Positions 9,496-50,578 of a stretch of DNA of 64,000 nt are shown here, in pieces. Made by a program: the position numbers and the translations under genes. Position 1 is the first letter of the stretch. Each line of letters opens with the position of its first letter. This DNA is from Escherichia coli (GTDB taxonomy: Bacteria > Pseudomonadota > Gammaproteobacteria > Enterobacterales > Enterobacteriaceae): the NCBI RefSeq assembly GCF_024298765.1, contig NZ_CP101210.1; one strand, given 5' to 3'. The notes beneath the pieces were generated by a model. That model saw only the letters and a program-made list of their open reading frames with translations, was not told where the DNA came from and did no database searches.

Positions 9496-9850
9496 TAGCG
9501 TCAAAAAAAGCCCCGGCAAGATTTATTGTCGGGGCTATGATAGTAACTGCGGTAGTACATTTATCCCGGAAATAACCGGAGCGATTATCAGGGGTTAACA
9601 ATATTAAATACCCGTAGCGCATCACTAGCGGGATTAAAACAACAATATGGACATCTTAACGATACTCTGCGCCTGCGTGTGCGGAACAGAAACCCTTACC
9701 CGATATACTTGTTATGCCAGAGGTAGCAATTGCGTTAGCGGCGTACTGTTGCTGTAAAGTATAACGCCTATATTTTACAGTTCAGTCCTCTTTTGCTTAT
9801 TACAACCTTAAGTATATCAAGCATATAAAGATAATAAGAGACTGAACAAT

Positions 9851-27965: not shown

Positions 27966-28502
27966 ATGTTACGCGATAAATTTATTCACTATTTTCAGCA
28001 ATGGCGTGAACGCCAGTTAAGCCGTGGCGAACACTGGCTGACACAACACCTGGCGGGGCGTTCGCCGCGTGAAAAGGGCATGTTACTGGCAGCGGCGGTG
28101 TTTCTGTTTAGCGCCGGATATTACGTCCTCATCTGGCAGCCTTTGAGCGAACGGATTGAGCAACAGGAGACGATGTTGCAACAGATGGTGGCGATGAACG
28201 CGCGACTGAAGAGCGCCGCGCCGGATATTATTGCGGCGCGAAAATCCGCCACAACAACGCCTGCACAGGTATCGCGGGTCATCAGCGATAGTGCTTCTGC
28301 GCACTCAGTGGTTATCAAGCGGATAGCCGAGCGCGGGGAGAATATTCAGGTCTGGATAGATCCGGTGGTGTTTAATGACCTGCTGAACTGGTTAAAAGCA
28401 CTGGATGAAAAGTATGCGCTGCGGGTGACACAAATTGATGTCAGCGCAGGTGAGAAGCCTGGAATGGTGAATGTGCAGCGGCTGGAATTTGGACGGGGAT
28501 AA
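27966..28502 (+). CDS. gspM: Type II secretion system protein M
   Basis: 178 aa with single N-terminal TM (GMLLAAAVFLFSAGYYVLIW); last gene of the cluster. Confidence 0.8.
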   Translation: MLRDKFIHYFQQWRERQLSRGEHWLTQHLAGRSPREKGMLLAAAVFLFSAGYYVLIWQPLSERIEQQETMLQQMVAMNARLKSAAPDIIAARKSATTTPAQVSRVISDSASAHSVVIKRIAERGENIQVWIDPVVFNDLLNWLKALDEKYALRVTQIDVSAGEKPGMVNVQRLEFGRG

Positions 28503-28613
28503 AGTATCAGGAGATTAATATCAATAAAATTACTCTCGTTAACGTGGCGAGAGTAATTCCCCCAGACTTTATAAGCTAATTTTTTTCGTGAAGGTTATTG
28601 TCAGAGCCAAAAG

Positions 28614-28640
28614 CAAAAACCCGCCTTGTGGCGGGTTCTT
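28614..28640 (-). terminator. Rho-independent terminator-like hairpin
   Basis: Minus-strand reading cccgccacaaggcggg stem-loop followed by TTTTTGCTTTTGG; lies just 3' of the tRNA-Phe remnant and downstream of gspM. Confidence 0.5.
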
Positions 28641-28649
28641 AAGAATTAG

Positions 28650-28668
28650 TGGTGCCCGGACTCGGAAT
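28650..28668 (-). other. tRNA-Phe 3'-end remnant (19 nt, island attachment-site repeat)
   Basis: TGGTGCCCGGACTCGGAAT is the reverse complement of the 3' end of E. coli tRNA-Phe (…ATTCCGAGTCCGGGCACCA); sequence diverges immediately after, so no tRNA body is present here. Confidence 0.7.
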
Positions 28669-28915
28669 GAAACTGGTTATATAACCAATTGTTTTGTATC
28701 GACTGTTTTATCCTTGTTCTTTTTGAGGCCACCAATGAGGCCCCCATGTGCAATTCGAATTCTTTTGACGCTATAATCCCTCTTTCTTGTGGTTTGTTGT
28801 AATCATTTTGTCTGGTTCGATATGCTGAATCGCGGAATCGAAGTGACAACAAAATACAGAGATTTATAAAATACCTGGCTACCTGTGTTAGGGAGCGTTA
28901 ACGCACAGATTTTGT

Positions 28916-29242
28916 TTATGGCTGCCAGAAATGATCTGATGGTTTGTCGTCTGGCTCTGCAAGTACCCTGTTGATATCCCGGGAACCATGAACGATACGT
29001 TCGATACGAACTTCAGTATCCAGTACCCTGAACAGCAGAAGGTAACGACCATACGAACAACCTCTGATCCCAGCCCCTAACTCGGGTCTTTCTCTGTAGA
29101 GTACTGGCGATTCGGCTATCAACAGACATTGTTGGTAAAGCTCTTCGGTAAAACTGATTGCACGGACAGGATTATCCTGAGCGATCCAGTCACCTATAGC
29201 TTCAAGATCGTGTTCTGCTAATGGTGAAACAGTCAGTTTCAT
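28916..29242 (-). CDS. parE: ParE/RelE-family type II toxin
   Basis: 108 aa MKLTVSPLAEHDLEAIGDWIAQDNPVRAISF...RIVHGSRD; overlaps upstream antitoxin gene by 4 nt. Confidence 0.75.
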   Translation of the reverse strand: MKLTVSPLAEHDLEAIGDWIAQDNPVRAISFTEELYQQCLLIAESPVLYRERPELGAGIRGCSYGRYLLLFRVLDTEVRIERIVHGSRDINRVLAEPDDKPSDHFWQP

Positions 29243-29502
29243 ATTGGCTGTTCACCTTCTGCCATCTTTTTGTATTTGTGCGTCAGTCGCCCGAATACCT
29301 CTTCAGCACTTTTACTTTCACCGCTGTTGATGCCTGCGGCCACGGCGCTCTGGAGTGATTCAAGCTTTATCTGCTGTTCCCGTTCTTCCAGAGCACGAAG
29401 TCCGGCACGAATGACTTCACTTGTATTGTTGTACCGACCACTTTCTATTTGTTCGCGGATAAACGTTTCAAAGTAAGGACTGAGGGATACACTGGTAGGC
29501 AT
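29239..29502 (-). CDS. parD: ParD-family (RHH) type II antitoxin
   Basis: 87 aa MPTSVSLSPYFETFIREQIESGRYNNTSEVIRAGLRALEEREQ..., ribbon-helix-helix antitoxin pattern. Confidence 0.75.
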   Translation of the reverse strand: MPTSVSLSPYFETFIREQIESGRYNNTSEVIRAGLRALEEREQQIKLESLQSAVAAGINSGESKSAEEVFGRLTHKYKKMAEGEQPI

Positions 29503-29573
29503 GGTTATTTTCTCGCCGATTGATTACTATCAATTAATAATAGTTAATATTCGCGAATTGTAAAATACCTCTT

Positions 29574-30440
29574 TTATGCCTTGCGGCTTTTGTTCACTGT
29601 GCTTGCCAGGGCTTCCGGGTAGTGTCTGGCAATAATATCATTAAGCCTGTCAACCAGCTCTGGTTTCCTGAACGTGATGTGCGCGGAGCCCTTCTTAAAG
29701 TATCTGATGCTGAACATCTCATCTTCATAGTCCTCTTTACCCTGAACAGACTGGATGTGATCATCCAGATGAATGGTGATGTTTTCCCGGTTGTCGGGGA
29801 TCGGTTTGCCGCTGAACAGGTGCAGCATTCTTTCCAGATCGGCAAGTCGATCGGCCTGTTGTCCGGTGATAAGATGAAACCCCCACCGGTCCCACCTCAC
29901 CAGATTGTTGACGATAATTTTACTGCCAAATTTGCAGGGTGAATTGGTTTTGTAATTCCAGCTCAGTCCTCTGAAAACGTTGAGCACCCCTCGCTCAAAC
30001 ACTTCATCTTTGTTCTGGTGCAGTTGTTCAAACGTGCTCAGGATATTTGCTTCGCTGATTTCCGGAAAATTATCGTACTCCAGTGACCGGTACCATGTAT
30101 CACGGGCTTGTGCATCCATTAATGACAGCATCCCTGAACGTTGCATCAGATCACGCCAGATTTCGCGGTCAAGGTTGCGGGTGATGGCTTTCATTGCGGT
30201 TTCCGGTTTTTCCATCAGCCAGCAACCGCAGCGAAAATCCTGTTTCATGGCCCAGTCCAGTGCAGTTTTACCTCCGATGCTTTCCGTCAGCACCGAGATT
30301 TCTGCCAGTTGCCGGATAAGTGTGTCGATTTGCAGCAGCGCACTCTTTCGTACAGCCAGAATGTGGCGGATGCTGGTTGAGCCGATAACGTCCGTATGCC
30401 CGTTGACCACTTCCGGACGGGGGGCTGTGATTTCAGACAT
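29574..30440 (-). CDS. Hypothetical protein (DUF4942-like, CP4-type island cargo)
   Basis: 288-aa ORF with no recognisable catalytic motif; family assignment from recollection of genes adjacent to cbtA/cbeA modules. Confidence 0.45.
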   Translation of the reverse strand: MSEITAPRPEVVNGHTDVIGSTSIRHILAVRKSALLQIDTLIRQLAEISVLTESIGGKTALDWAMKQDFRCGCWLMEKPETAMKAITRNLDREIWRDLMQRSGMLSLMDAQARDTWYRSLEYDNFPEISEANILSTFEQLHQNKDEVFERGVLNVFRGLSWNYKTNSPCKFGSKIIVNNLVRWDRWGFHLITGQQADRLADLERMLHLFSGKPIPDNRENITIHLDDHIQSVQGKEDYEDEMFSIRYFKKGSAHITFRKPELVDRLNDIIARHYPEALASTVNKSRKA

Positions 30441-30524
30441 AATCGATATTCCTTTTTGCAGATAAATGAAAACGCCAGCCCTGTTCAGGCTGGCGTCAGT
30501 GGAATGAAGTCTGGTGAGTAAGAC

Positions 30525-30722
30525 TCACCGGTTCTGTTGCAGAAGCTGCAACTGGCGCAGGATACGGATATCCTCCCTGGCCTGTTCGATACAGGGCAAC
30601 AGTGCTGCCGAATCCGTTCTATCCTCATCGTTGTCAAAGATAATTCCCGATTCGCAGTCGATATTGTCCTGTAGCCACGCAATCAGAATATCCAGTGCGG
30701 TTTCCGTGGTTAATGATTTCAT
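30525..30722 (-). CDS. Small hypothetical protein (CP4-like island)
   Basis: 65 aa from MKSLTTETALDILIAWLQDNIDCESGIIFDNDEDRTDSAALLPCIEQ...; resembles small conserved ORFs near cbtA modules. Confidence 0.4.
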   Translation of the reverse strand: MKSLTTETALDILIAWLQDNIDCESGIIFDNDEDRTDSAALLPCIEQAREDIRILRQLQLLQQNR

Positions 30723-30733
30723 GTTGTTCCTGG

Positions 30734-31225
30734 TTACCAGTCGAAAGTGGGCAGGTCCGGCAGACATTCAGCGCTGGCATCCAGATGAATGAGACTGACG
30801 CCATAACGTCGGGTAAGTGTGACAACCAGACGACGGAACGTTTTTGACAGGCCCAGGCGCTTAAGCCGCAGAACCGGGTATGACCACGCATCGGTACGTA
30901 ACAGATATCCGCTACCTGTGAAATGAATCCATTCTGATTCGCCGGTGCCATTCGTCTGATGTGACAGCGAGTACAGCCAGGCGTTGTCCTTTGCCGTGAT
31001 ATGCGCGGTACTGCAGCGTATGCCGGTAAGGGCCGCCGCAGATGATGGCGTGCGCTCTGCTGATGTCCGGTCAGATTCATCAACAACACGAAGGGAGTAA
31101 CCGTTATCGCAGACCACGTTAATCAGTTCAGCGAGAGTAACACCATCGACGTCAACGACAATGCGCCCCATGTTCAGTGCCTGCACGTTAATGCTGTCGG
31201 CTTCCAGCGTCAGGGCCAGTTTCAT
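30734..31225 (-). CDS. Hypothetical protein downstream of cbtA (YeeW-like position)
   Basis: 163-aa ORF whose start overlaps the cbtA stop; no motif recognised. Confidence 0.4.
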   Translation of the reverse strand: MKLALTLEADSINVQALNMGRIVVDVDGVTLAELINVVCDNGYSLRVVDESDRTSAERTPSSAAALTGIRCSTAHITAKDNAWLYSLSHQTNGTGESEWIHFTGSGYLLRTDAWSYPVLRLKRLGLSKTFRRLVVTLTRRYGVSLIHLDASAECLPDLPTFDW

Positions 31226-31599
31226 TGTTTCGCCCCCGGATGTTTACCCAGGGTAATGTTATTTACCGTTCTGTAATTGTCGCGGGCCATCAGGCCGGTT
31301 GCCCGGCGGGCCCGGAGGATATCAATACTGTTTATTAACTGAGAACGGGTACAGGCGCTGAATCCTGGCTGGTCGGTACGTACCAGTGCGTATTTTTCAA
31401 CGAGAAAGTTCACCGCATCGCACAGTGAAATGCCTGCCTCAATATGCTGCTCAATCACACGTTCATCAGCGAACGGTGTGTCATTCAGTGTGAGGCCGTA
31501 ATGCTGGTCCAACAGTCGGGTGAGCAGTGTCTGCCAGATGGTGACGGGAGACGGGCAGCGCGATGCCTCCCGTACGTGTGTGTCAGGTAATGTTTTCAT
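31222..31599 (-). CDS. cbtA: CbtA/YeeV-family type IV toxin
   Basis: From MKTLPDTHV...; ...WQTLLTRLLDQHYGLTLNDTPFADERVIEQHIEAGISLCDAVNFLVEKYALVRTDQPGFSACTRSQLINSIDILRARRATGLM is near-identical to CbtA/YkfI/YpjF toxins as I recall them. Confidence 0.85.
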   Translation of the reverse strand: MKTLPDTHVREASRCPSPVTIWQTLLTRLLDQHYGLTLNDTPFADERVIEQHIEAGISLCDAVNFLVEKYALVRTDQPGFSACTRSQLINSIDILRARRATGLMARDNYRTVNNITLGKHPGAKQ

Positions 31600-31645
31600 C
31601 TTAAGTTCTCTGTAACTGGTAGTGCTAAAGGTGAGATATTCGGGG

Positions 31646-32020
31646 TTATGAGGTGGTTGCGGGTGCCAGTGTCGGATAAACAGCCATATAAACGTAACCA
31701 CAGCTGCCGAGGGTGTCGGCTTCGCAGGTCAGCCCTCTGGCATACAGCGTGACGGTATGCTGATGGCGGGGATTCAGTTCACCGCTGGTGAGCATGAGTT
31801 CCAGTTGTTTCATCAGCAGCGGAAAGGCCTGGTCCAGATGATACGCATCCGCGTCGCTAAACTGCCCCCTGATACCGGCGCGGTCGGCAAGGTAATGCAA
31901 CCGGTTACCCTCCTGCACCAGACGTGCCCCGAAACAGGGCGTCACGGTGCAGGGGAGCCCCCACCAGGGGCGGTCGTTGTTGTTGTCGGGATGCGTTGTC
32001 CCGGGGTGTGTGTCTGACAC
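31646..32020 (-). CDS. cbeA: CbeA/YeeU-family type IV antitoxin
   Basis: MSDTHPGTTHPDNNNDRPWWGLPCTVTPCFGARLVQEGNRLHYLADRAGIRGQFSDADAYHLDQAFPLLMKQLELMLTSGELNPRHQHTVTLYA... Confidence 0.85.
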   Translation of the reverse strand: MSDTHPGTTHPDNNNDRPWWGLPCTVTPCFGARLVQEGNRLHYLADRAGIRGQFSDADAYHLDQAFPLLMKQLELMLTSGELNPRHQHTVTLYARGLTCEADTLGSCGYVYMAVYPTLAPATTS

Positions 32021-32099
32021 GATAAAATCCTCACAGAAAATCGGTTAAGAATGCTCCGATGGTGGCGATAATTCGGCTCATCAGAATGCCCTTTCTGAT

Positions 32100-32321
32100 T
32101 CAGTTCAGGGTAACGCTCATCAGACGGACATACGGACCAAAACTGTCCTTACGGCGTTCAGCAAACACGGCCAGCACACCGGGAATATCCTGCACTTCAC
32201 GGCCGGTATACGTATCCGTGCTACCGTGCCAGCGGTATTTACCGGTACAGAACGGAAAAAGACGGGATGCAGGATGCTGTTGGTGAATACGCATGGCTTC
32301 ACCACGGGTGATGATTTTCAT
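32100..32321 (-). CDS. yeeT: YeeT-like protein (DUF987)
   Basis: 73 aa MKIITRGEAMRIHQQHPASRLFPFCTGKYRWHGS... Confidence 0.8.
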   Translation of the reverse strand: MKIITRGEAMRIHQQHPASRLFPFCTGKYRWHGSTDTYTGREVQDIPGVLAVFAERRKDSFGPYVRLMSVTLN

Positions 32322-32383
32322 AATGGGATACCTCTGAAGACAGAAGATAAAAGTGAAAACAGGTGTGATGTGGTTGTGACGGG

Positions 32384-32860
32384 TTAAAGCAGACCGTGTT
32401 CGGCAAAGGAGAATACCTGGTTGCCACCGACTATCAGATGGTCCGGCACCCGGATATCCACCAGGGCCAGCGCCTGTACCAGACGTTCAGTGATAAGCCG
32501 GTCTGCCTTACTGGGGGTGACTTCACCGGACGGGTGATTGTGCGCCAGCACCACGGCAGCGGCATTGTGGTACAGGGCACGTTTAATCACCTCCCGGGGA
32601 TGGACTTCTGTGCGGTTGATGGTGCCTGTGAAGAGGGTTTCACCCGCAATCAGCTGATTCTGGTTGTTCAGATACAGCACCCGGAACTCTTCCCGCTCCA
32701 GTCCTGCCATGTTCAGAATCAGCCATTCCCGTGCCGCATGCGTGGAGGTGAAGGCCACGCCGGGCTCATGAAGATGACGGTCCAGGGTTTTCAGGGCCCG
32801 CTGAATGAGGCTGCGCTCGCCGGGCGTCATCTCTCCGGGCAGAAAGGAAAGCTGTTGCAT
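32384..32860 (-). CDS. yeeS: RadC-like JAB-domain protein
   Basis: JAMM-like motif in VVLAHNHPSGEVTPSKADRLITERL; start placed at MQQLSFLPGE. Confidence 0.8.
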   Translation of the reverse strand: MQQLSFLPGEMTPGERSLIQRALKTLDRHLHEPGVAFTSTHAAREWLILNMAGLEREEFRVLYLNNQNQLIAGETLFTGTINRTEVHPREVIKRALYHNAAAVVLAHNHPSGEVTPSKADRLITERLVQALALVDIRVPDHLIVGGNQVFSFAEHGLL

Positions 32861-32875
32861 TGTGCTTCTCTCCAT

Positions 32876-33361
32876 TCAGTCGATGATGCGCATAATGGCG
32901 TTGCATTCCGGATGCTGCAGGGCGTAATCCCGCAACCGATAATAATGGACCGTCATGGCATAATTCTCTGTACGACAGGCGTGATGACTGTACGCCATCA
33001 GACAGGCGGCAATGCCGGCGGCTTCCGGGCTCATTTCAGCGCGGTTGCCGTTCATGGCATTGAACAGTACCCATGTTTCGTCATCATCGTCATCCGGTTC
33101 GGGTACCATAAATGCCCCACCGTTGTTCAGGGTGTACAGATTCCAGATACCACCGCAGTAGTCTTCGCAAAGACGGTCCATCCAGCCGAAGACACGGGGC
33201 TCCAGGGTCACCCACTGTGGAATGAGGCCAAAATGTTGCGGCCAGAAACTGATGCGCTGTTCATCAGGGACGGGAGTGGCAACCAGTTGAGACTGGTTAT
33301 TCCCTGGTGCAGTGGTTACGGAAACAGAAGGCGTGGTGGAGCTATGCGAAAAGGTTGTCAT
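32876..33361 (-). CDS. Antirestriction protein (ArdB/KlcA-like, YfjX family)
   Basis: 161 aa with acidic stretch PEPDDDDDETW and WVTLEPRVFGWMDRLCEDYCGGIWNLYTLNNGGAFMVP motif region recalled from YfjX/YafX proteins. Confidence 0.65.
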   Translation of the reverse strand: MTTFSHSSTTPSVSVTTAPGNNQSQLVATPVPDEQRISFWPQHFGLIPQWVTLEPRVFGWMDRLCEDYCGGIWNLYTLNNGGAFMVPEPDDDDDETWVLFNAMNGNRAEMSPEAAGIAACLMAYSHHACRTENYAMTVHYYRLRDYALQHPECNAIMRIID

Positions 33362-33452
33362 GAGATGATTCCTTATAAAAAGTAAATGAATGGAAGAATG
33401 CCCGGGGACTGGTACAGACGTGAGTCAGGGTTGCACTTTCAGGGAAACAGCA

Positions 33453-34271
33453 TCAGCGCATGCTCTCCAGCAGCGTTTCTGCCATCACCCACAATGCGCG
33501 ATTGAGCTTAATGTCCGTGTCGATGCTGTGAATGGCACGGGTGTGGATACGTTTTCCTTTAGCGCTGCGACCAGAAATCCCGCCTTTCAGCATATTTTCC
33601 TGGATGGTCTGATAAGCACTCCACAGGTCCTTACCGTAATCCTCCCGGCGTCGTGGCGTCAGAATGTCGGCGGTGGTGACGGGCTGATGTTCGTCACCAT
33701 AACGGTAAGTCAGTGCCGCCTGTGCCAGCGCCTGGCGTGCCGGTGGCGGCAGGACCAGCGACTGCATGGCATCACGCTTTTCCTCAATCCGGTCAAAAAC
33801 GCCCACCACTTCGTAAGCCCCTTCAATGACTCTGTCCACCACATTTCCCCGGTGCGGAACACGCACTTCCCCCAGAGACTGACCACAGACGCAGCCGTTC
33901 TGGCAGACGAACCTGAAGTAACCCGGCAGCATCTGGTAGCTGGAGGTACCGTCATGGGAGTTCAGCAGGATGATTTCAGGGACATGTTGTCCGTTTATCT
34001 CCCCGTCACGGCGCAGACGCAGCATGTGTTTGGTATACCCCCGGCGGCCCGGGTCACGTACGCGGGTCTGGCAGGCAAAGAAGGGCTGAAAGCCTTCCCG
34101 CTGCAGGCTTTCCAGCACGGTGATGGTGGGGATCCAGGTATAGTTCTCGCTTCTGGATGTGTGCTTATCTTCCCCGAATACGCTGGGGACGACCTGCATC
34201 AGTTCTTCGCGAGTTAAGGGGCGGTCACGGCGTATCTGGTTCGCATAACCAAAACGACTTGCTAATCGCAT
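33453..34271 (-). CDS. DUF932-family protein (YfjQ/YafZ-like)
   Basis: 272 aa; position and sequence typical of CP4-type islands. Confidence 0.65.
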   Translation of the reverse strand: MRLASRFGYANQIRRDRPLTREELMQVVPSVFGEDKHTSRSENYTWIPTITVLESLQREGFQPFFACQTRVRDPGRRGYTKHMLRLRRDGEINGQHVPEIILLNSHDGTSSYQMLPGYFRFVCQNGCVCGQSLGEVRVPHRGNVVDRVIEGAYEVVGVFDRIEEKRDAMQSLVLPPPARQALAQAALTYRYGDEHQPVTTADILTPRRREDYGKDLWSAYQTIQENMLKGGISGRSAKGKRIHTRAIHSIDTDIKLNRALWVMAETLLESMR

Positions 34272-34361
34272 GATTTGCTCCTTATGAATGAGTTAGCGAT
34301 ATAAATGAAAAAGCCGCGCCTCCCGGAGAAGACGCGGCCTGATGGATGAAATGAATGACGT

Positions 34362-34571
34362 TTATTGTCTGAGAAGCCCTTCACTGGCGAGCCACACATT
34401 AAGCTGTTTTCCGGCATCGGATTCAAAATTCCAGTACCGCCAGCGCAACTGACCTTCAGCATTACGGATAACCAGCCGGAAATGCGTTCCCTGGTCATCT
34501 TCAATAAGCACATTGCGGTAAGCTGTTGTGACGGCAACCGCCTGTTCGCGTGAGAAAGGGCCTTCGGGCAA
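34362..34571 (-). CDS. Small DUF905-like protein
   Basis: 69 aa [49 protein letters not shown]... Confidence 0.45.
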
Positions 34572-34600
34572 TTAAACAGGGTGACAGTCCGACATACCGG

Positions 34601-35278
34601 CTATTTTCCGATAAATTCAACGCTGGCACCGGTGGCATTACCGTCAGCACCAACCGTGACGGTCACTTTGTCGTACGCACGGTCTTCAGGATTGAACACT
34701 TCAAACTCAACCTTATTGCCTTTTACTTCGTAAGAGCCAAAATCAGCGGTTTCTGTTGTTTCCTCGTCATATTCCCGGGCGTATGCCAGCCGGGCAGCCT
34801 GCAGGACGGAATCTTTATTAATGGCGGGTGTCTGTTTCGGGGAAAAACCGGCAAGTGATGTGACAAATTTCGGACAGACCTTCAGCATATCACCGCGGGT
34901 GAATTCCATTCGTACACCAAATGCCTGTAAAACGGACACATCACGCTCTGCTATGGAGTGAACGGCTTTTTTGACCATTTCCGGCGCCTGTCCGATTTCC
35001 ACCTCAACAGCCCTGAATCCCGTCTGCTGATTACACATTTGTGATGTGGGGATCAGGTTACCGTTAATACTGATACGGCTGCCCAGGAGCGTCTGTACAC
35101 CATTCGGGCATCCCTGCATCAGGCCGGTAATACCAATCGTGCCATTTTTCAGCATTACCAGCGCCTGACCATCTTCCGTCATGGTCTGACACCAGCCGTT
35201 TTTGACAGCCCAGTTGCCGGCGGAGGCGGAGAATGATGCCACAGTGAACAGCAGGGGAAAAAGAGCTCTGGTATTCAT
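34601..35278 (-). CDS. Exported hypothetical protein (signal peptide)
   Basis: From MNTRALFPLLFTVASFSASAG...; cleavable-looking signal peptide; no functional motif recognised. Confidence 0.45.
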   Translation of the reverse strand: MNTRALFPLLFTVASFSASAGNWAVKNGWCQTMTEDGQALVMLKNGTIGITGLMQGCPNGVQTLLGSRISINGNLIPTSQMCNQQTGFRAVEVEIGQAPEMVKKAVHSIAERDVSVLQAFGVRMEFTRGDMLKVCPKFVTSLAGFSPKQTPAINKDSVLQAARLAYAREYDEETTETADFGSYEVKGNKVEFEVFNPEDRAYDKVTVTVGADGNATGASVEFIGK

Positions 35279-35425
35279 GACTGACCTCTGAAATGAACGT
35301 ACGGTGTTATTGATAATGATGGAAGGTATGCAGTGACTGTTCAGGGAATGACGTAGCCGTATATTTAGTTTTCTGTTCAACATATTGTCTCCATACCTGT
35401 CGGGACGGCTTTGGCAGGCCGGCGA

Positions 35426-36106
35426 TCACAGGTTAAAGGTGTTGATAAGTTTATGGATGAAAGAGAAATGTGGCAGGGCGGAGATAAAACGCTCTTCAGC
35501 GACCAGACTGTGGATGTGGCCTCTCCGTTCAAACCGTTCTGATGTCAGGCTGACTGATTTGATATCTGCCAGAGGAAAGACCTGCAGTTTTCCCTTCTGT
35601 AACGCGATCAGATACCAGCTACCGCTGTAATAAATGAGCCGGCAGGGCTCCAGTGACGGATACCATCGCTCAGTCATCAGAGAGATGTGGATACACTGTC
35701 TTATTGCCAGGATGAGTTGCGAGAAACACTCGGGGAACGTTGCAGTGATATCCGGCGCCGGTAGCCAGATAAGGCAGGGAGAGGGCTCCTGGTTGTCGGT
35801 AAGACAGGTTATCAGTCGTCCGTTCCGGAGCGGAAGTATCCGTGCGATCCCGGTATTCTGTATAAAAGAAAGCATTTCAGGGATCGCACCTGGGCTGCTC
35901 TGTCGTCTGAGGCTGTACCTGCCATTTCTGTACTCTAAATCCAGGTGAACCAGACGCTGATGAAAATCGCGCTGTAAAGTACGTTCTGTAACGCCAAATT
36001 CATCTGACAGTGTTTTTAGTGACAGAGATTCTCCGGCCATCAGTCGGCTGATAATGAGTGATAAGCGAACCGCCAGGCGATCATGCCGGGAACGATTATC
36101 AGACAT
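35426..36106 (-). CDS. HTH + WYL-domain transcriptional regulator (YfjR-like)
   Basis: MSDNRSRHDRLAVRLSLIISRLMAGESLSLKTLSDEFGVTERTLQRDF... N-terminal HTH, C-terminal ...GSWYLIAL... WYL-like segment. Confidence 0.7.
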   Translation of the reverse strand: MSDNRSRHDRLAVRLSLIISRLMAGESLSLKTLSDEFGVTERTLQRDFHQRLVHLDLEYRNGRYSLRRQSSPGAIPEMLSFIQNTGIARILPLRNGRLITCLTDNQEPSPCLIWLPAPDITATFPECFSQLILAIRQCIHISLMTERWYPSLEPCRLIYYSGSWYLIALQKGKLQVFPLADIKSVSLTSERFERRGHIHSLVAEERFISALPHFSFIHKLINTFNL

Positions 36107-36308
36107 AGATGTGCACTCCGTAAGAAAACATCTTTTATTTCATGATGTTATTATGCATCATGATGTTGAAAGGATGTGTCGCATCCGAATAATCAGAAAT
36201 AAAATGCAGCAGAAAAAATATTCCTTTAATTATCTGATTTTTAAGCAGGGTTTCATAAAAAGAAGAATGCTTGTTAATCCAGCGACACATCCTGTCGGCG
36301 TGAGTGTG

Positions 36309-37193
36309 TCAGAACAGACGATCCCACAGTGTGACCAGCAAGTGGATAATGCGGTCCCGGGCCTTACGCAGAAGCTGTAACATCCAGGCCGGAAAGCTGA
36401 ATTGGGCAACGGCAGCGTCAAAGCTTTTCCCGATGGCGTCACCAAAAGTTTGTTGTGCGTGTTTCCGGGCCTGTTCAGAGCGGTTTTCCCCCCGGATATG
36501 TGAATAAACTGCGCTGGTTGCCTGTGGTGGCAGTGCGTGGATCATCAGCGACACCAGTGCCGGAAGATTCCAGCCGACAGGTGCGGCAACGGAGAGTACC
36601 GGAAATGATGACGGGAACAGGGGTGCCACCCGGGCTGTTACTGTCGCCAGTGAGAGTTCCTGCTGACGGGACGGGCATTTTTCTGTGTCGTTCCATTCTT
36701 CAGCAGGAAACACGCGATCGGCATGGCTGAGAACAAACAGAAAACGCGAGGGATCTGCACCTTCATTCAGTAAAAACTGATGCATGGCAATATCAGCAGC
36801 ATACGCACGTTCATCAGCCCGCAGGATCCAGATAATCAGATCCAGTTCCGGCAGTAACTGACGGTAAAGCTCCCGGTATTCCTGATCATGCTGCGGTGTC
36901 TCACCAATGCCGGGCATATCGACCAGCGTCATTCTGCGTTCACCGAGCTGCAGGGTAAGACGATGAGCCTGGCGGGTGCAGCCGTTCAGGGGATGCGTGG
37001 CGCAGATACGGGACTGAAAAATGGCATTACACAGACTGCTTTTGCCGGTGCCGGATTTACCCATAATGCCAATTACGGGCTCGTAATGAATAACACCGTG
37101 GAGATGTTCAAGGATTTTCTGGCGAATTTCTTCAGGAAGAAACGTCAGATATGATTTTACTTGTGCAGAGAGGGAAGAATGGCTGAATGACAT
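36309..37193 (-). CDS. GTP-binding protein (YfjP/YkfA/YeeP family)
   Basis: G1 motif GIMGKSGTGKSS, G3-like DMPGIGE; 294 aa. Confidence 0.8.
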   Translation of the reverse strand: MSFSHSSLSAQVKSYLTFLPEEIRQKILEHLHGVIHYEPVIGIMGKSGTGKSSLCNAIFQSRICATHPLNGCTRQAHRLTLQLGERRMTLVDMPGIGETPQHDQEYRELYRQLLPELDLIIWILRADERAYAADIAMHQFLLNEGADPSRFLFVLSHADRVFPAEEWNDTEKCPSRQQELSLATVTARVAPLFPSSFPVLSVAAPVGWNLPALVSLMIHALPPQATSAVYSHIRGENRSEQARKHAQQTFGDAIGKSFDAAVAQFSFPAWMLQLLRKARDRIIHLLVTLWDRLF

Positions 37194-37377
37194 ACCGGTA
37201 TCCTGTTGATTTCGCTGAACCGGATCACACTAATCCGGTTTATCATTCAGGTAATATGGACGTGAAAAATGATGGAATGTCTGAATTACGGACATGATTG
37301 TTAAAGTGTAATGGAGTATGAAGTGAGTTTTTCCGAACGGGAACTAATGACATACTGCGGTTTCAGGAGATGAGAGG

Positions 37378-38508
37378 ATGACCGGACGTAAAAACAAATG
37401 TGTCAGAAAAAATTGTAACAATCAGGTTTTCTCAGTAAAAATGGCAGTGGAGAAAAGACTGTGCAGAAAACATTATGAGAGGTTTTGTGAGCTCAAAAAA
37501 AGAAGAGAGCAAAATCCTGTTCACAGATTAAATGAAGCATTGCCAAGAAAGATAAAAGGACCAAAAAGTAAGAAAAAATTAGTAAAAGAAAGAGAAATCA
37601 TTAACAGCAGAAAAAAACATAAACAGGAGCAGGGACCATCGCTGACTGAACTTAATAAAAAAGTTCGTGAGATACTGAAAACTCCTGCATGGAGAACGCT
37701 GGAAACGAGAATTCGAAGAAACGGAATCACATTTAACTCAAAAGCAGAGTTAGATGCGCTTTCTGAACTTTATGCAATTTATTCATGGGTTTCATATTGC
37801 AAACGGGGCGATAATTATTCTGTGTGGTTTTTGAATTGTCCGGATGTAAATATAAACCTTCATGTGTGCGAATGCCGGTCTTCTGAAAGCGATTGTTATC
37901 TGCCATCTCGTTTTATTATTCTTCCAGCTCCATTAAGGCAAAAAGTAAAAAGAAAATACTCGGCTAATTCGTCTGGGGTACCAGGACATAATGATTCAAA
38001 AAGTCTTTATAAGACAGTTTTGTCTGTTTGTGGTGGGAAAAGAGAAACCGAAATGTTCTTTTATTCATTGCCAGTAAAGACTAATCATCATCCTTACTGG
38101 ATTAAAAGTGGTGTGGTTAAAAGATTCCCTCCTGTTTTTGGTTTGTTGTTTTATGAACAGGAAAGATTAACAGGAGGTGTTTTTCGTTATGTGTTGATAA
38201 GATTTTATAATACTTTTAAAGAGAATTTGTTTTTTGTTGAGATTGTATCGTGCTGTTTTCTTGTTGAGCTTTTTCATGATATTGATTCATTTTTTATAAA
38301 TCAACGATTAAGTAAGCTGGAAAGTTTTATAGATAAGTGGAGGGAGGGTAAAGAAATCTGGATAAAAGTATATTTACAACTGATACATACTATATTGGGA
38401 ATAACTGAAACAGAAAAACTCGTCAATCTATATAATTCATTTTTTACTGATAAAGTGGTTCTCTGGGATGAATCAGTAAAAAAAGTTAAGTGGATTTATG
38501 AGAAATAG
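37378..38508 (+). CDS. Hypothetical Lys-rich protein with Cys-rich N-terminus (orphan)
   Basis: 376-aa ORF, strongly AT-rich by eye; N-terminus CVRKNCNNQ...CRKHYERFC; no recognisable homolog. Confidence 0.45.
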   Translation: MTGRKNKCVRKNCNNQVFSVKMAVEKRLCRKHYERFCELKKRREQNPVHRLNEALPRKIKGPKSKKKLVKEREIINSRKKHKQEQGPSLTELNKKVREILKTPAWRTLETRIRRNGITFNSKAELDALSELYAIYSWVSYCKRGDNYSVWFLNCPDVNINLHVCECRSSESDCYLPSRFIILPAPLRQKVKRKYSANSSGVPGHNDSKSLYKTVLSVCGGKRETEMFFYSLPVKTNHHPYWIKSGVVKRFPPVFGLLFYEQERLTGGVFRYVLIRFYNTFKENLFFVEIVSCCFLVELFHDIDSFFINQRLSKLESFIDKWREGKEIWIKVYLQLIHTILGITETEKLVNLYNSFFTDKVVLWDESVKKVKWIYEK

Positions 38509-40013
38509 TACCATTTAACTGAAAGCCACCATAACGTCTTTTTGACTACATTTATGATAATGCGTCTCATTTTGTTTTCGTTTTTTTGTTCAGGGAAATT
38601 TTCCGAACATCAGTGATAATGAGGGTTTTGTTGTTTTTGTTTCTGCAATGTTTGAGGACTGTTCCTGGAGACGATTCGTTGCTTGTGAGCAAGAGGTGGT
38701 CCGCTTTACTGGACAAGTTTTGCATTTGTTGAGTGGTGAAATGGAAGTAAAAAGAGCCCCTTTCTGGCAATGGTTGAAAAAGTCAGTAGCGTGTGACAGT
38801 AAAAGCTAACATAAAGTGATTATCGTATGATTATGACAATGACTTATAACTTTTATGAAAAGAACAACAGAAACTACGAAGCCATAGCAGATTCCTGAGA
38901 CCATGTTTTCTGAGGTAGAGAAAATAATTCCAGAGTAAATCTGTTCTGTTTTTAGGACAGAAAACTCCATGCTGGCTGTAAAAGTGAAAAATTAACACCC
39001 AGTATGTATGGAAGTCTGAAGATGTTGAGAATGTCGGTATGATACTATATACACATATTTTACTAAGTATTTTTACTAAGCATTTCAGTAAGTGTTATAC
39101 ACGTATTTTCATAAACACTTCTACAATTGTTTTCGTTAAGCATTGCTATACACATCCAGTTTAGTAAATCTTTACGTTAACTAAATCAGTTTAATGCTGC
39201 TGTAAAACCTTTCTGCTTCAGCAATCAATCTGCTATTCGATTTTACTGATGTTACGTTTAACCTTTCCTGAGATTTCGAGTTTCGACGTTAGCATGAGAA
39301 AAGTATCTTTACGCTAAATCAACCCGAACTTTCCTGAAGTAATCTGACGTTCTTTTCGATGTGCTTACAACGATTCTGTTAAATGACTTTCTGGATGTTT
39401 TGATAACAATCAGATTTAGGCATTAACGATTCCTGACGTTTTTCTTTTCCGTGTAAGGTCATTGTTTTCGTCATGAGGTTTCTTCTTGCATTGCGAAAGT
39501 GTGATGAACGGTTTTGGTGTTTTGATTCAGATGAAGTTTACGTTATCGATGGTTAATCGTTTTTATGGTGCGTAGTGAAACGTAACGCTTTCAGGAAGGG
39601 AAAATCGATTCTGATGGGGATGATCGTGTAACGGCGTTATCTGTAAACAGGTTTTAAACATGTCATTCGCATCCGTGATTGAGTTGTGTGATTAAGCTGT
39701 AGGTTTTGGGGTTGTTGTTGATTTGCATTACCAGGAAGCGTTCTGGTTGCGTTTCTGGTGTTTTGTTTGAATGTTCTGTGGATCCTTTTCCCTTCTGACT
39801 TTTCTCGTTGTCTATGTCGTTTTTAAATCCATTCGCTGTTCTTGAGTGTTTTTACCCTGTGTGTAGAATTATCTTTTCGTTCCGGGATGGTTTGTTCCGT
39901 TTCAATCACTCTTAATCAGAAAGTTGTAGCATTGCTCAATGCCGGATGCCGTAAAGTTTTACCGCGGTGATTAATGATGTGAAGTCAATCCAAATCAACG
40001 GAGATCTCTCATC

Positions 40014-40745
40014 ATGAATCAACCAATACACAATGCTTACTGGTTATCCCGTTTTGACAGCCTTCTCGACAGTGCCCTGGCGCAGCACCGTGCCGTCTCG
40101 TTAATCCGGGTGGATTTACGTTTCCCTGAGTATATGCCTGTCACCATCATGGATCCCGATCCGGATTCAGCGGTGATTTCTCGTTTTTTTGCATCCCTGA
40201 AAGCCAAAATTCAGGCTTACCAGCGGAAAAAAAGATGTGCCAATCAGCGTGTGCATGCAACCAGCCTGGGTTATTTCTGGTGCCGGGAGTTCGGCAAGAT
40301 GTATGGCAGGAAACATTATCACGTGATATTACTGCTCAACAAAGATACCTGGTGCTCGCTCGGGGATTTCAGCGAACCGTCTTCGCTGGCGACGATGATC
40401 CAGGAGGCATGGTGCAGCGCCCTGCATCTTGAGCCCTGGCAGGGTAATGGACTGGTTCATTTTTCCAGGCGGACGCCTTTCCGTAAACCGACATCATCTG
40501 ATGCTCGCCCTTCTTCCGATGATACGCCTTTGTCGGGTGGATGTTCTGAAACCAGGAAGGTTTCAGACAAAAAGTCTGGTGAAGCCGCTGTTCTCTGGAT
40601 CAAGCGTGGTGATGTGGAAGCGATGCAGAAAGCCCGGAACAGAGCCAGTTATCTCGTGAAAAATGAAACGAAGTTGCATGATGGTTCAGGTCAACGTAAT
40701 TATGGTTGCAGTCGTGGGCCGGGGCGTCTACTGGATGGCAGGTGA
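40014..40745 (+). CDS. YfjJ/YagK-like (inovirus Gp2-family) protein
   Basis: 243 aa MNQPIHNAYWLSRFDSLLDSALAQHRAVSLIRVDLRFPEY...; resembles prophage-island YagK/YfjJ proteins. Confidence 0.6.
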   Translation: MNQPIHNAYWLSRFDSLLDSALAQHRAVSLIRVDLRFPEYMPVTIMDPDPDSAVISRFFASLKAKIQAYQRKKRCANQRVHATSLGYFWCREFGKMYGRKHYHVILLLNKDTWCSLGDFSEPSSLATMIQEAWCSALHLEPWQGNGLVHFSRRTPFRKPTSSDARPSSDDTPLSGGCSETRKVSDKKSGEAAVLWIKRGDVEAMQKARNRASYLVKNETKLHDGSGQRNYGCSRGPGRLLDGR

Positions 40746-41111
40746 ACCCTGTAAAACAGCATCTGGTGCCTGAGTGTATACCACGGTAAGGGCGTTGGAT
40801 GATGTCTTTAAATAATACAGTGCATTTTCATTCGTTTCCGCACTTTATGTTTTCACTAATCATAATAGGAAAAGTGACCACTAGCCTTGATAAATTGTAT
40901 TCACGGCCATTTCAGGAGTGGATTGTTGTGAATAACACGATGAGATCAGGGGGCTGAAGATTTTTTCTTTATCCGTTCAGACTTCAGTAACTGGAAAAAG
41001 CTTTCTGTAACCGCATTATAGTGGCAGTTACCGCGATGGTCGTGTTATTTCAGGAACGACTGACGCTCATGGCTTGTACACTAAAGAGTGAACTTAGGTA
41101 ATGACTCCAAC

Positions 41112-41615
41112 TTATTGATAGTGTTTTATGTTCAGATAATGCCCGATGACTTTGTCATGCAGCTCCACCGATTTTGAGAACGACAGCGACTTCCGTCCCA
41201 GCCGTGCCAGGTGCTGCCTCAGATTCAGGTTATGCCGCTCAATTCGCTGCGTATATCGCTTGCTGATTACGTGCAGCTTTCCCTTCAGGCGGGATTCATA
41301 CAGCGGCCAGCCATCCGTCATCCATATCACCACGTCAAAGGGTGACAGCAGGCTCATAAGACGCCCCAGCGTCGCCATAGTGCGTTCACCGAATACGTGC
41401 GCAACAACCGTCTTCCGGAGACTGTCATACGCGTAAAACAGCCAGCGCTGGCGCGATTTAGCCCCGACATAGCCCCACTGTTCGTCCATTTCCTCGCAGA
41501 CGATGACGTCACTGCCCGGCTGTATGCGCGAGGTTACCGACTGCGGCCTGAGTTTTTTAAGTGACGTAAAATCGTGTTGAGGCCAACGCCCATAATGCGG
41601 GCAGTTGCCCGGCAT
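41112..41615 (-). CDS. insB: IS1 InsB (expressed as InsAB by frameshift)
   Basis: ...[64 protein letters not shown]... Confidence 0.9.
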
Positions 41616-41809
41616 CCGACGCCATTCATGGCCATATCAATGATTTTCTGGTGCGTACCGGGTTGAGAGGCGGTGTAAGTGAACTGTAGTTGCCATGTTT
41701 TACGGCAATGAGAGCAGAGATAGCGCTGATGTCCGGCAGTGCTTTTGCCGTTACGCACCACGCCTTCAGGAGCGGAGCAGGAAGGACATCTGATGGAAAT
41801 GGAAGCCAC
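41534..41809 (-). CDS. insA: IS1 InsA
   Basis: [43 protein letters not shown]... Confidence 0.9.
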
Positions 41810-42072
41810 GCAAGCACCTTAAAATCACCATCATACACTAAATCAGTAAGTTGGCACCATTACCTGACCAAGCTTCCTCTATTGCGGCACCTGATTGCAT
41901 CAATATCGAAAGTGATAAGATCCTCTCACTAGCAGGGCATGACAAGTGTAACTGCTGATTTGTTAGCCTGTTTTAAGTTTTTTAAGATCAATTATTTCTC
42001 ATTTTTTGACTTTATTGCTAGCCGTGAAAATGCAAAGCCTATAGGATACAAAAATTACAATTTGTAGGTTTT

Positions 42073-42579
42073 GTGAGTCATATGAAGGCAACCAATATAG
42101 ACCCTCAACTGCTTGAAAAAGCCACGAGTATCTTTGCTGAGTTGGGCTTACCTATTGAGCAGGCTATTAACGTCTTTTTAGCTAAATCCGTTCAAGCCAA
42201 AGGTTTTCCGTTTTCTGTTGCTCTTGAAAATGAAGTAGAGACACGGGAAGTTGCACAAACGCAACACAATATCAGCAATGCAGAGATAACCGAAGCTATC
42301 CAAGACTTGGTTGAACATGCTCTACCACTGAGTGAAATAGAAAACCTCACGCAGCTAACCTATTGTCGCAACATTTTTGGGTTGTCATTCCCCGTGCTCA
42401 AACTGGCTAAATCATCACGGCCAGAAGACATTCGCAGTGCAGCCAAAGATGCCAAAGAGCGAAACCGCTACTCCACCACTAAAGTGGCCCAGCGAGATGA
42501 AAAAACCTATGTTATTTGCACCCAATGGACCGACAGACATCGTTCTGCATTTTGCCGTTGGCAAGCCATCTTTAGCTAG
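42073..42579 (+). CDS. RelB/DinJ-like antitoxin-domain protein with C-terminal extension
   Basis: N-terminus MKATNIDPQLLEKATSIFAELGLPIEQAINVFLAKSVQAKGFPF resembles DinJ/RelB RHH antitoxins; ~90-aa C-terminal extension unrecognised; no adjacent toxin ORF. Confidence 0.5.
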   Translation: MSHMKATNIDPQLLEKATSIFAELGLPIEQAINVFLAKSVQAKGFPFSVALENEVETREVAQTQHNISNAEITEAIQDLVEHALPLSEIENLTQLTYCRNIFGLSFPVLKLAKSSRPEDIRSAAKDAKERNRYSTTKVAQRDEKTYVICTQWTDRHRSAFCRWQAIFS

Positions 42580-42645: not shown

Positions 42646-44625
42646 ATGAACTTACAAGACAAAGAACAAAGCGCCAAACTCTCCAGTGCTATTTGGCGTA
42701 TGGCAGATGATTTATGGGGTGATTTCAAACACACCGATTTTGCGCGGATTATCCTGCCATTTTTGCTACTGCGTCGTATTGAATGCGTGTTAGAACCCAC
42801 CCGTGAGGAAGTTCGTAAGTTCTATCTGGCCGAAAAACAATCCGGCATAGACCTTGGTTTAGTGTTGCCAGAAATTGCGGGATTCGCCTTTTACAACACC
42901 AGTGAATATAGCCTAGAAACCTTAGGCGCGTCAGACACCGGCGACAACCTAGAACACTACATCAGCCAGTTCAGCAAAAACGTTCGTACCATCTTTGATG
43001 AGTTTAAATTTGGTCAAACCATAGAAGATCTGGAAAAAGCCAAGTTGCTGTATCGCATGGTAAACCATTTTGCCAACCTCGACTTGCATCCTGATGTAGT
43101 GTCTGACCGCGTATTATCAGATGCTTATGAAGAGCTGATTCTAAAGTTCGCCAGTTCGGTTAATGAAAAGGCCGGGGAATTTATGACCCCGCGTGATGCC
43201 GTGCGTCTTGCCACCAAACTGGTGCTGGCGGCGGATGAAGATATCTTTAGTGAAAAGGGTGTGATCCGCACCATCTATGACCCAACCTGTGGCACGGGCG
43301 GTTTCCTTTCCGATGCCATTAGCCAAATTGAAGAAATGGGCAGCAGCGCTAAAGTCGTGCCTTTTGGTCAAGAGCTCGACCCCGCGACCCATGCCATGGC
43401 GCTGACCAATATGATGATCCGCGGTTTTGATGCCAATAACATCAAGCAAGGCAACACCTTATCAGACGATCAGTTACGTGCCGACAAGTTTCACTACGGC
43501 CTTGCCAACCCGCCATTTGGCATTAAGTGGGAAAAAGCCAAGAAAGAAGTAGAACGTGAGCACAAACAGCTCAAATACGCCGGACGCTTTGGGCCAGGCC
43601 TGCCGAGTATTTCTGATGGTTCAATGCTGTTTTTACTGCACTTGGTATCAAAAATGGAAACGCCGGAAAATGGTGGTGGCCGAGTGGGTATAGTCCTTTC
43701 TGGCTCGCCACTGTTTAATGGCGATGCAGGCTCAGGCCCATCAGAAATCCGCCGTTGGCTGCTAGAACAAGACTTAGTCGAAGCGATTGTTGCCCTGCCA
43801 ACCGATATGTTCTTCAACACCGGCATTGGCACCTACATCTGGATTTTGACTAACCATAAAGAGCCAAGACGCAAGAATCAGGTGCAACTGATTAACTTGG
43901 CAGATATTTGGACTCCCATGCGTAAATCGCAAGGCGATAAGCGCAAGTACCTGAGTGATGAACAGATTGACGATATTGTCCGTGCGTACGATGGCTTTGA
44001 AGCCAGTGACAACTGTAAGATCTTCCAGACTACTGATTTTGCCTACCGTAAAGTCACCATTCAGCGTCCACTGCGTGCCAAACTAGATATTACCGCTGCG
44101 GGCATTGCTGCATTTGTGCAGCAAGATACGTTTAAAAAACTCAAACCAGAGCAACAAGCGGCATGGGTACAATACCTCACCGATAACCTTGGCCTTCAGC
44201 CTTATGAATGGGCACGTTTGGCGGTTAAGAAGAATAACAATAAGGGTGACTTTGGTAAGTGCTCAAAAGCACTGGCTACGGCCTTAACTGCGCACTTTGT
44301 AAAAATTGATCCGCAATTTGAGCCTGCACTGGATGAAAAAGGCCAAGTGATCGCCGACCCTAAACTCAAAGACACCGAAAGCATTCCTTTTGACCGCGAC
44401 GTTGAAGATTACTTCGCACAAGAGGTGCTGCCACATGTACCGGATGCCTTTATTGATCACTCAGTGCGTGATGAAAAAGACGGCGAAGTGGGCATTGTCG
44501 GTTATGAAATTAACTTTAACCGCTATTTCTACCAATACGTGCCACCACGCGAGTTGAGTGTGATTGATCGTGAGCTAAAAGCATGTGAAGCGCGCATTCA
44601 GGCTCTGCTGAATGAGGTGGCGTAA
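42646..44625 (+). CDS. hsdM: Type I restriction-modification system, DNA methyltransferase subunit
   Basis: AdoMet motif DPTCGTGGFL and catalytic NPPF (GLANPPFGIKWEK); 659 aa. Confidence 0.9.
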   Translation: MNLQDKEQSAKLSSAIWRMADDLWGDFKHTDFARIILPFLLLRRIECVLEPTREEVRKFYLAEKQSGIDLGLVLPEIAGFAFYNTSEYSLETLGASDTGDNLEHYISQFSKNVRTIFDEFKFGQTIEDLEKAKLLYRMVNHFANLDLHPDVVSDRVLSDAYEELILKFASSVNEKAGEFMTPRDAVRLATKLVLAADEDIFSEKGVIRTIYDPTCGTGGFLSDAISQIEEMGSSAKVVPFGQELDPATHAMALTNMMIRGFDANNIKQGNTLSDDQLRADKFHYGLANPPFGIKWEKAKKEVEREHKQLKYAGRFGPGLPSISDGSMLFLLHLVSKMETPENGGGRVGIVLSGSPLFNGDAGSGPSEIRRWLLEQDLVEAIVALPTDMFFNTGIGTYIWILTNHKEPRRKNQVQLINLADIWTPMRKSQGDKRKYLSDEQIDDIVRAYDGFEASDNCKIFQTTDFAYRKVTIQRPLRAKLDITAAGIAAFVQQDTFKKLKPEQQAAWVQYLTDNLGLQPYEWARLAVKKNNNKGDFGKCSKALATALTAHFVKIDPQFEPALDEKGQVIADPKLKDTESIPFDRDVEDYFAQEVLPHVPDAFIDHSVRDEKDGEVGIVGYEINFNRYFYQYVPPRELSVIDRELKACEARIQALLNEVA

Positions 44626-50543: not shown

Positions 50544-50578
50544 TAGCCCATTATCAGTAACATATGAAGGTTGATTCA

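Follow-up and report, generated by a model that had tools for sequence, protein, structure and literature searches.

Two toxin-antitoxin operons close a mosaic integrative island at the tRNA-Phe gene pheV of Escherichia coli

Why should two toxin-antitoxin modules lie one behind the other at the very edge of a genomic island, and what might they do there? The question is raised by a 64,000-nt stretch of Escherichia coli DNA (the window, at its full length), in which a ParD/ParE pair and a CbeA/CbtA pair occupy a block at 28916-32020, with all relevant genes on the minus strand. A preliminary description had placed both pairs at the tRNA-Phe end of an island. Family matches, a tRNA remnant and comparison with empty-site genomes bear this out, and the coordinates and gene identities given there all hold after family matching and position checks. 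We find that two intact toxin-antitoxin operons close a mosaic integrative island at the tRNA-Phe gene pheV, at the end that carries the tRNA remnant. The identity of the genes is near certain. Both modules belong to known families and are already annotated, and the block contains nothing new in kind.

The outer of the two modules comprises the following elements.

28916-29242, minus strand: parE, type II toxin of 108 aa (PF05016, 65.3 bits against a cutoff of 23, E = 8e-18; RefSeq WP_000779483.1)

29239-29502, minus strand: parD, ribbon-helix-helix antitoxin of 87 aa (PF03693, 62.7 bits against a cutoff of 21, E = 4.5e-17)

29519-29564, minus strand: putative parDE promoter/operator (-35 element TTTACA at 29564-29559, -10 element TATTAT at 29542-29537, spacer of 16)

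These genes form an antitoxin-first operon, in which the parD stop codon and the parE start codon share 4 nt (ATGA). By family match, ParD is a ribbon-helix-helix antitoxin encoded directly upstream of the toxin in the same operon; it also matches the CC2985-type model TIGR02606 (96.8 bits against a cutoff of 46.2), and its matches among solved structures are ParD proteins (7B22, 3KXE chain C and 8C24). The toxin is assigned by its matches to the ParE family and not to the RelE mRNase branch. Its score against the RelE_StbE model TIGR02385 (24.3) falls under the cutoff of 27.9, and among solved structures it matches ParE toxins only (6X0A at E = 2.8e-13, 7YCS, 3KXE, 5CEG and 5CW7), with E-values that span 2.8e-13 to 5e-3 and so denote a distant relationship.

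Upstream of parD, a consensus scan finds a promoter-like site that agrees with 10 of 12 consensus positions; across the region as a whole, promoter-like sites show no excess over shuffles. A perfect 10-nt palindrome (ATTCGCGAAT, 29549-29558) falls inside the spacer between the -35 and -10 elements, and an inverted repeat (ATTGAT-N4-ATCAAT, 29519-29534) lies just past the -10 element. An autoregulated type II operon would be expected to combine a promoter with palindromes in this way, and we describe the site as a putative operator recognized by pattern match only. When compared with a homologous pair from Erwinia amylovora, nonsynonymous divergence (dN) is 0.20 for ParE and 0.18 for ParD, with synonymous divergence (dS) saturated, and the differences found within E. 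coli are few and mostly synonymous. Judged by these substitutions, strong purifying selection acts on both genes. Gyrase is the target that most ParE toxins inhibit, and ParD both neutralizes ParE and represses the operon (PMC8706911); we infer DNA gyrase to be the expected target of ParE here.

The second module lies further into the island.

31222-31599, minus strand: cbtA, toxin of 125 aa, expected from its K-12 relatives to target FtsZ and MreB (PF06755, E = 4e-63)

31646-32020, minus strand: cbeA, type IV antitoxin of 124 aa (PF06154, E = 5e-55)

Here, too, the antitoxin gene comes first, with a 46-nt gap between the cbeA stop codon and the cbtA start codon. The open reading frame listed for the toxin (31222-31701) is extended to a GTG further upstream, but the true start codon is the ATG at 31599, the one that RefSeq annotates on identical sequence. 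With their K-12 counterparts, CbtA (YeeV) and CbeA (YeeU), the two proteins each share 89% identity, and with YkfI/YafW and YpjF/YfjZ 59-67%. CbtA makes separable inhibitory contacts with FtsZ and MreB, the protection given by CbeA comes from bundling those filaments and not from binding the toxin, and changing F65 to Ser abolishes the interaction with FtsZ in all three K-12 toxins (PMC5624674). This FtsZ-contact residue, F65, is invariant in our CbtA alignment. At position 15, where K-12 CbtA contacts MreB through R15, the window protein has a Cys, like YkfI and YpjF; membership of the CbtA family is not excluded by this residue, because YkfI and YpjF also carry Cys at position 15 and still block elongation (PMC5624674). 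Among solved structures, CbeA matches YeeU/YfjZ proteins only (2INW, E = 3e-77; 2H28, YeeU, E = 5e-74), and a search of the structure database found no solved relative of CbtA by sequence. We assign the toxin to the CbtA family, with F65 in place, and the protein encoded directly upstream of it to the CbeA/YeeU family of antitoxins.

Where the island ends can be read from three elements on the outer side of parE.

28650-28672, minus strand: tRNA-Phe 3′-end remnant, an attachment (att)-type repeat at the island boundary (21 of 23 nt match; the first 19 nt, 28650-28668, are exact)

28673-28840, strand not assigned: conserved terminal segment of the island, ~168 nt, common to ParDE-type and AbiE-type island ends

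28614-28641, minus strand: core pheV terminator hairpin, a terminator-like site downstream of the tRNA remnant, within the stretch common to empty-site genomes

Searching with the 3′ end of the E. coli tRNA-Phe returned this single site in the window and matched in 0 of 100 shuffles. An intact tRNA at the boundary was considered and ruled out: ARAGORN finds none in the whole window, which leaves a remnant only. In genomes with an empty site, where tRNA-Phe is annotated beside yghD/gspM, the match to the window ends at 28671, and because it stops there we take this position as the true island edge. Aligned in this way, the repeat at 28650-28672 is of att type and was left on the far side of an island inserted in pheV, next to gspM/yghD, and the hairpin at 28614-28641 is the chromosome's, not the island's. 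The direct repeat of the tRNA 3′ end, together with the absence of the island from empty-site genomes, identifies a tRNA-integrated (P4/CP4-like) island. The parE stop codon lies 243 nt from the remnant, in agreement with the earlier statement that ParD/ParE sits within 250 bp of it. The CbeA/CbtA pair had been placed 2 kb further in, which is roughly right, with 1.7 kb from the parD start to the cbtA stop and 2.5 kb to the cbeA start.

The toxin-antitoxin pairs form the fixed end of a conserved CP4-like arm, which is also found in CP4-44, CP4-6 and CP4-57 of K-12 and whose genes run in the order GTPase, WYL regulator, DUF905, DUF932, antirestriction, RadC, DUF987, CbeA, CbtA, DUF5983, DUF957 and DUF4942. 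This arm has a median of 3 occurrences per genome. Across a survey set of 5426 complete E. coli genomes, the parDE segment is present in 472 (~9%), always on the chromosome and never at more than two places in a genome (median one), and in 471 of them it adjoins the same terminus and tRNA-Phe repeat; the whole block (28500-32100) occurs in 454 and is annotated alike by the pipeline of the National Center for Biotechnology Information (NCBI), which gives every gene the name used in the preliminary description. Sampled ParDE arms occupy three settings: pheV/gspM, pheU/cadC, and tandem arrays, where the repeat is followed by the integrase of another island. Relatives of ParE occur widely on chromosomes of the Enterobacterales and on Pantoea megaplasmids. 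A recent plasmid or phage origin of ParDE is not supported by searches with ParE, which among plasmids returned the Pantoea megaplasmids, one Salmonella plasmid and distant alphaproteobacterial matches, with no E. coli plasmid, and in the phage collection gave one distant match only, to a Ralstonia phage.

As a side observation on this distribution, strain YZMc3-1 (NZ_CP123244.1, 810500-860000) has the same arm, again with ParDE last, at the end of an island that exceeds 49 kb. The cargo of that island includes sul2, strAB, tet(A), floR, a TIR-domain protein, a dGTPase and a type I restriction-modification system.

Could modules of this kind serve the physiology of the host under stress, through oxidative-stress tolerance or biofilm formation, and not the island? 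In K-12, resistance to oxidative stress fell when all three CbtA-type toxin genes were deleted, and early biofilm formation rose when the antitoxin genes were (PMC5371832). These K-12 effects are modest, however, and appear only in multi-gene deletions, and the restriction of ParDE to ~9% of E. coli genomes, always with the island arm, is a better fit to a role in a mobile element. We regard a host-stress function as very improbable.

The reading we favor, with a confidence that stops a little short of even, is that the pairs penalize loss of the island and that most of the island-specific effect comes from ParDE. The analysis establishes the identity of the genes, their intactness, position and conservation, and the cassette-like slot; for toxicity, molecular targets, autoregulation and stabilization, we infer from characterized relatives how this might proceed. 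ParD would bind and neutralize ParE and, by way of the palindromes at 29519-29558, would keep its own promoter repressed. On loss of the genes or degradation of ParD, free ParE would poison DNA gyrase. CbtA, for its part, would block division and elongation by binding FtsZ (via F65) and MreB, and CbeA would counteract it by stabilizing FtsZ/MreB bundles, not by binding the toxin. Cells in which the excised island is lost, or its end deleted, would then grow more poorly, so that the most likely net effect would be stabilization of the island. ParDE, which is usually single-copy and so island-specific, probably supplies most of this effect, because CbeA-type antitoxins of other islands can rescue cells from CbtA. 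Such a role would fit two precedents. ParESO/CopASO maintains the prophage CP4So after its excision, with an antitoxin that binds inverted repeats in its own promoter (PMC8706911), and SgiAT maintains the island SGI1 (cited in PMC10790755). The CbtA-type modules of K-12 likewise sit near prophage attachment sites (PMC5371832).

Several observations weigh against a stabilizing role. Neither an integrase nor an intact tRNA was found in the 35 kb of island inside the window, which bears on the island's ability to excise, and CP4-44 retains cbtA/cbeA though it can no longer excise (PMC5371832). ParE2 of E. coli O157 does not inhibit gyrase, so that this target is not guaranteed (PMC8706911), and some E. 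coli genomes carry truncated ParE alleles of 76 aa. CbtA/CbeA, finally, would give little island-specific addiction, because the antitoxins cross-neutralize (CbeA, YafW and YfjZ each neutralize all three K-12 toxins, PMC5371832) and the arm that carries them has a median of 3 occurrences per genome.

Is the outermost position reserved for ParDE? A comparison with strain 4224 of sequence type 131 (ST131) delimits the segment concerned.

28841-29616, minus strand: variable cassette slot, here holding parE, parD and their promoter (delimited by homology breakpoints against ST131 strain 4224)

On either side of this slot the two strains align, at 91.6% identity over the terminus (28603-28840) and 90.5% identity over the arm from 29617 on. 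Between these flanks, strain 4224 carries abiEii and a DUF6088 gene (AbiEi by PADLOC, E = 2e-51) in place of parE-parD; the sampled ST131 AbiEii copy is frameshifted. The final ~14 codons of the DUF4942 gene fall within the slot. This type of terminus is present in 1117 of the 5426 genomes, and the slot between DUF4942 and the terminus holds ParDE in 471 and AbiEi/AbiEii in 653. Because these two sets cover essentially all 1117 genomes, the slot is essentially always filled at this terminus. The one new detail is that the outermost island position is taken by ParDE or by an AbiE pair, depending on the strain. At the two slot boundaries we find no repeats that would suggest a site-specific cassette mechanism.

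The left slot boundary coincides with CGGAATCGAAGTG (28833-28845), which repeats 10 nt of the tRNA-Phe T-arm (CGGAATCGAA, 28833-28842). This second tRNA-like motif could be a decayed att repeat; a 10-nt match could also arise by chance, and we treat it as chance.

Stacking of modules is not a general property of the arm. We surveyed 30 DUF4942 loci from other species. At least part of the arm lies upstream of DUF4942 in 22 loci from other Enterobacterales, and in the 22 arms with readable downstream sequence no ParDE or AbiE relative was found downstream; at least 7 of them have an intact tRNA ~80-250 nt past DUF4942. In Hafnia alvei, the sequence downstream of DUF4942 holds a three-gene cluster (3268-6114 of the locus), a possible cargo or defense module that encodes a 438-aa protein with weak, sub-threshold matches to coiled-coil-type Pfam models, a 234-aa protein with an OmpA-like domain and a 281-aa protein of unknown type.

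It is conceivable, if doubtful, that the segment between DUF4942 and the terminus is set aside for toxin-antitoxin pairs that can be exchanged for one another. Such a slot would give the island a private module for addiction or defense that cannot be cross-neutralized, and would offset a CbtA/CbeA pair disarmed by other CP4-type arms.

The occupants of the slot also raise the possibility that the modules act mainly in anti-phage abortive infection, where infection would free ParE or CbtA and halt the cell before the phage cycle completes. AbiEi/AbiEii is a recognized abortive-infection toxin-antitoxin pair of type IV, and it holds the same slot in 653 genomes. The island interior is rich in defense genes as well, and we read it as a defense cluster because the Kiwa genes KwaA/KwaB (49147-50543) sit between the hsdM/S/R genes of a type I restriction-modification system (42646-49147) and a RhuM/PDC-S05 gene (50564-51613). 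Ten proteins of the arm, ParE, ParD, CbtA and CbeA included, nevertheless match no PADLOC model, the sampled ST131 AbiEii is frameshifted, and we found no paper that reports phage defense by CbtA/CbeA or by this ParDE pair. On balance we consider abortive infection, the chief rival reading, an unlikely main function, and stabilization of the island remains the reading we prefer.

How the arm came to be assembled bears on one further explanation. From 28000 to 31500 and from 33000 to 35750, the window arm is identical to the pheV arm of strain 104, and from 31500 to 32750 and from 36000 to 37689 it is identical to the arm of a selC island in strain FY10. The mosaic therefore switches near 31500, at 32750-33000 and at 35750-36000, a pattern that, from the aligned segments, points to paralogous arms having exchanged sequence by gene conversion. 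One of the switches lies at the cbtA 5′ end or in the cbtA-cbeA spacer (31500-31650). The exact mosaic of the window occurs in no complete genome, the best of which matches at 97.9%.

An arm pieced together from stretches identical to one or the other of two island lineages, and a swap of ParDE and AbiE as cassettes, are what might be seen if the modules were selfish passengers that are hard to lose and spread among arms by recombination, with no benefit to island or host. Signs of decay (truncated ParE alleles, and an orphan parD beside a truncated cbtA) point the same way, as does the survey of other Enterobacterales, in which the 22 arms with readable downstream sequence showed no ParDE or AbiE relative and at least 7 have an intact tRNA within ~80-250 nt. 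Against this stand the strong purifying selection on both ParDE genes and a slot that is filled in essentially every case (471 + 653 against 1117 genomes), more than drift predicts. We judge pure selfishness to be quite unlikely, and continue to favor modules that penalize island loss.

Further variants of the arm were seen alongside these comparisons. The orphan parD lies in NZ_CP095823.1 (~4700-5300) beside a 5′-truncated cbtA, with parE deleted, among tandem arms at tRNA-Ile; this assembly is frameshift-rich and doubtful. Some Enterobacterales arms have 0.7-1.2 kb inserted between cbeA and cbtA, and in Serratia and Yersinia the order is DUF5983, cbtA, cbeA, with the toxin first. The interior of the window island from 36000 to 42000 is 100% identical to the FY10 island (NZ_CP095816.1), which is located at selC (tRNA-Sec and integrase), not pheV; therefore the same cargo occurs at two different tRNA sites. 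The FY10 arm ends with DUF4942, a hypothetical gene, IS1 and yicL, without ParDE.

The remaining features of the arm within and next to the block are as follows.

29574-30440, minus strand: DUF4942 gene, the last conserved gene of the arm, kept across Enterobacterales arms (PF13708, E = 2e-69)

30471-30497, minus strand: terminator-like hairpin between the DUF957 and DUF4942 genes (11-pair stem with 7 GC, then a T-run; pattern match only)

30525-30767, minus strand: small gene of the DUF957 family, starting at 30767 (80 aa) or at 30722 (65 aa, RefSeq), named from the RefSeq annotation of an identical sequence

30734-31225, minus strand: DUF5983 (YeeW-like) gene, 163 aa (PF25638, PF19419), whose start overlaps the cbtA stop by 4 nt (ATGA)

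32100-32321, minus strand: DUF987 gene (Pfam match)

32384-32875, minus strand: gene for a RadC-like JAB protein (Pfam match)

32876-33361, minus strand: gene for an ArdB-type antirestriction protein (Pfam match)

The hairpin at 30471-30497 may end a cbeA-cbtA-DUF5983-DUF957 transcription unit. The product of the DUF957-family gene at 30525-30767 has no Pfam match at E ≤ 0.01. DUF5983 is listed as a recurrent partner of CbtA in a survey (PMC10790755), and the order of DUF987, RadC and ArdB upstream of the pair is the same as in CP4-44, CP4-6 and CP4-57 of K-12.

Several other features of the window deserve record. The two Kiwa genes (49147-50543), which lie directly after hsdR and are without Pfam match, were identified by PADLOC as KwaA (E = 9e-16) and KwaB (E = 7e-14). 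The gene directly upstream of hsdM (42073-42579) encodes a protein of 168 aa whose N-terminal part matches a RelB-antitoxin domain (PF04221, E = 2.6e-5) and which has no PADLOC match. At 37378-38508, in a stretch of 34-39% GC (37000-40000), a 376-aa open reading frame matches neither Pfam nor PADLOC and is annotated as hypothetical in related genomes. Mobile elements include an IS1 transposase (41112-41615), a group II intron (55460-57073, Rfam domain and reverse transcriptase/maturase open reading frame), a fragment of a second group II intron (62558-62697) and an IS3-type ALIL frameshift pseudoknot (58073-58188). A match to Rfam RF00117 (294 bits) at 9551-9772 places the small RNA C0719 in core sequence, upstream of the gsp operon.

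As a discovery, the two modules carry little weight: they belong to well-studied families that NCBI's pipeline has named in hundreds of genomes, and the finding is correct but ordinary. The arm carries resistance, virulence or defense genes in different strains, and modules that hinder its loss would help this cargo to persist. The alternation of ParDE and AbiE at a fixed slot offers a natural experiment on the contribution of toxin-antitoxin modules to island retention, and the contrast between a usually single-copy ParDE and a multi-copy, cross-neutralizing CbeA offers a second. The slot and the copy-number contrast are modest additions to what is known of these modules.

How does the locus compare with known systems? 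E. amylovora carries a pair that is 76% (ParD) and 73% (ParE) identical to that of the window, whose ParE has a C-terminal tail of ~17 residues that the Erwinia homolog is without. In that species a ParE/ribbon-helix-helix (RHH) pair is toxic in E. coli and neutralized by its antitoxin, the E. amylovora CbtA did not bind FtsZ or MreB, and Table 1 of the same paper places CbeA/CbtA (EAMY_0399/0400) two locus tags from RHH/ParE (EAMY_0402/0403) (PMC6521040). On the E. amylovora contigs that we retrieved, the pair follows an integrase and a primase in a neighborhood unlike that of the window, and no relative of CbtA, CbeA or DUF4942 is found, over 6.1 kb upstream on the longest contig. That the tested EAMY_0403 ParE is the 73%-identical homolog could not be confirmed from these contigs, given their different neighborhood.

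ParESO/CopASO of Shewanella oneidensis CP4So resembles the window pair in uniting a ParE-family toxin with a ribbon-helix-helix antitoxin on a P4-like element (PMC8706911). It differs in the family name of its antitoxin, CopA, and the likeness is one of type, with no close sequence relationship demonstrated. In 653 E. coli genomes, AbiEi/AbiEii fills the very slot taken here by ParDE, between DUF4942 and the tRNA-Phe terminus, but its proteins are unrelated (a nucleotidyltransferase toxin and a DUF6088/AbiEi antitoxin) and its cassette measures 1.4 kb, against 0.8 kb for ParDE.

The ParDE systems with solved structures (Caulobacter crescentus ParDE1, 3KXE; 6X0A; 5CEG; and Vibrio cholerae ParD2, 7B22/7R5A) have the same Pfam families and the same antitoxin-first, overlapping operon. 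The 6X0A and 5CEG complexes, deposited as 'plasmid stabilization system', are presumably from Mesorhizobium. The relationship of these systems to the window pair is distant, and the window pair differs in being island-borne, chromosomal and never on an E. coli plasmid.

The closest counterpart of the inner module is CbtA/CbeA of K-12 CP4-44, with its paralogs. K-12 CbtA has at position 15 the Arg needed for contact with MreB, where the window protein has Cys. YeeW of K-12 is a short gene (195 nt), whereas the window DUF5983 is full length (163 aa), and the window arm, unlike CP4-44, goes on with DUF957, DUF4942 and ParDE. The likeness is otherwise extensive: 89% identity to the CP4-44 pair, DUF987/RadC upstream, YeeW/DUF5983 downstream, F65 retained, and a location near the attachment site of a P4-like element.

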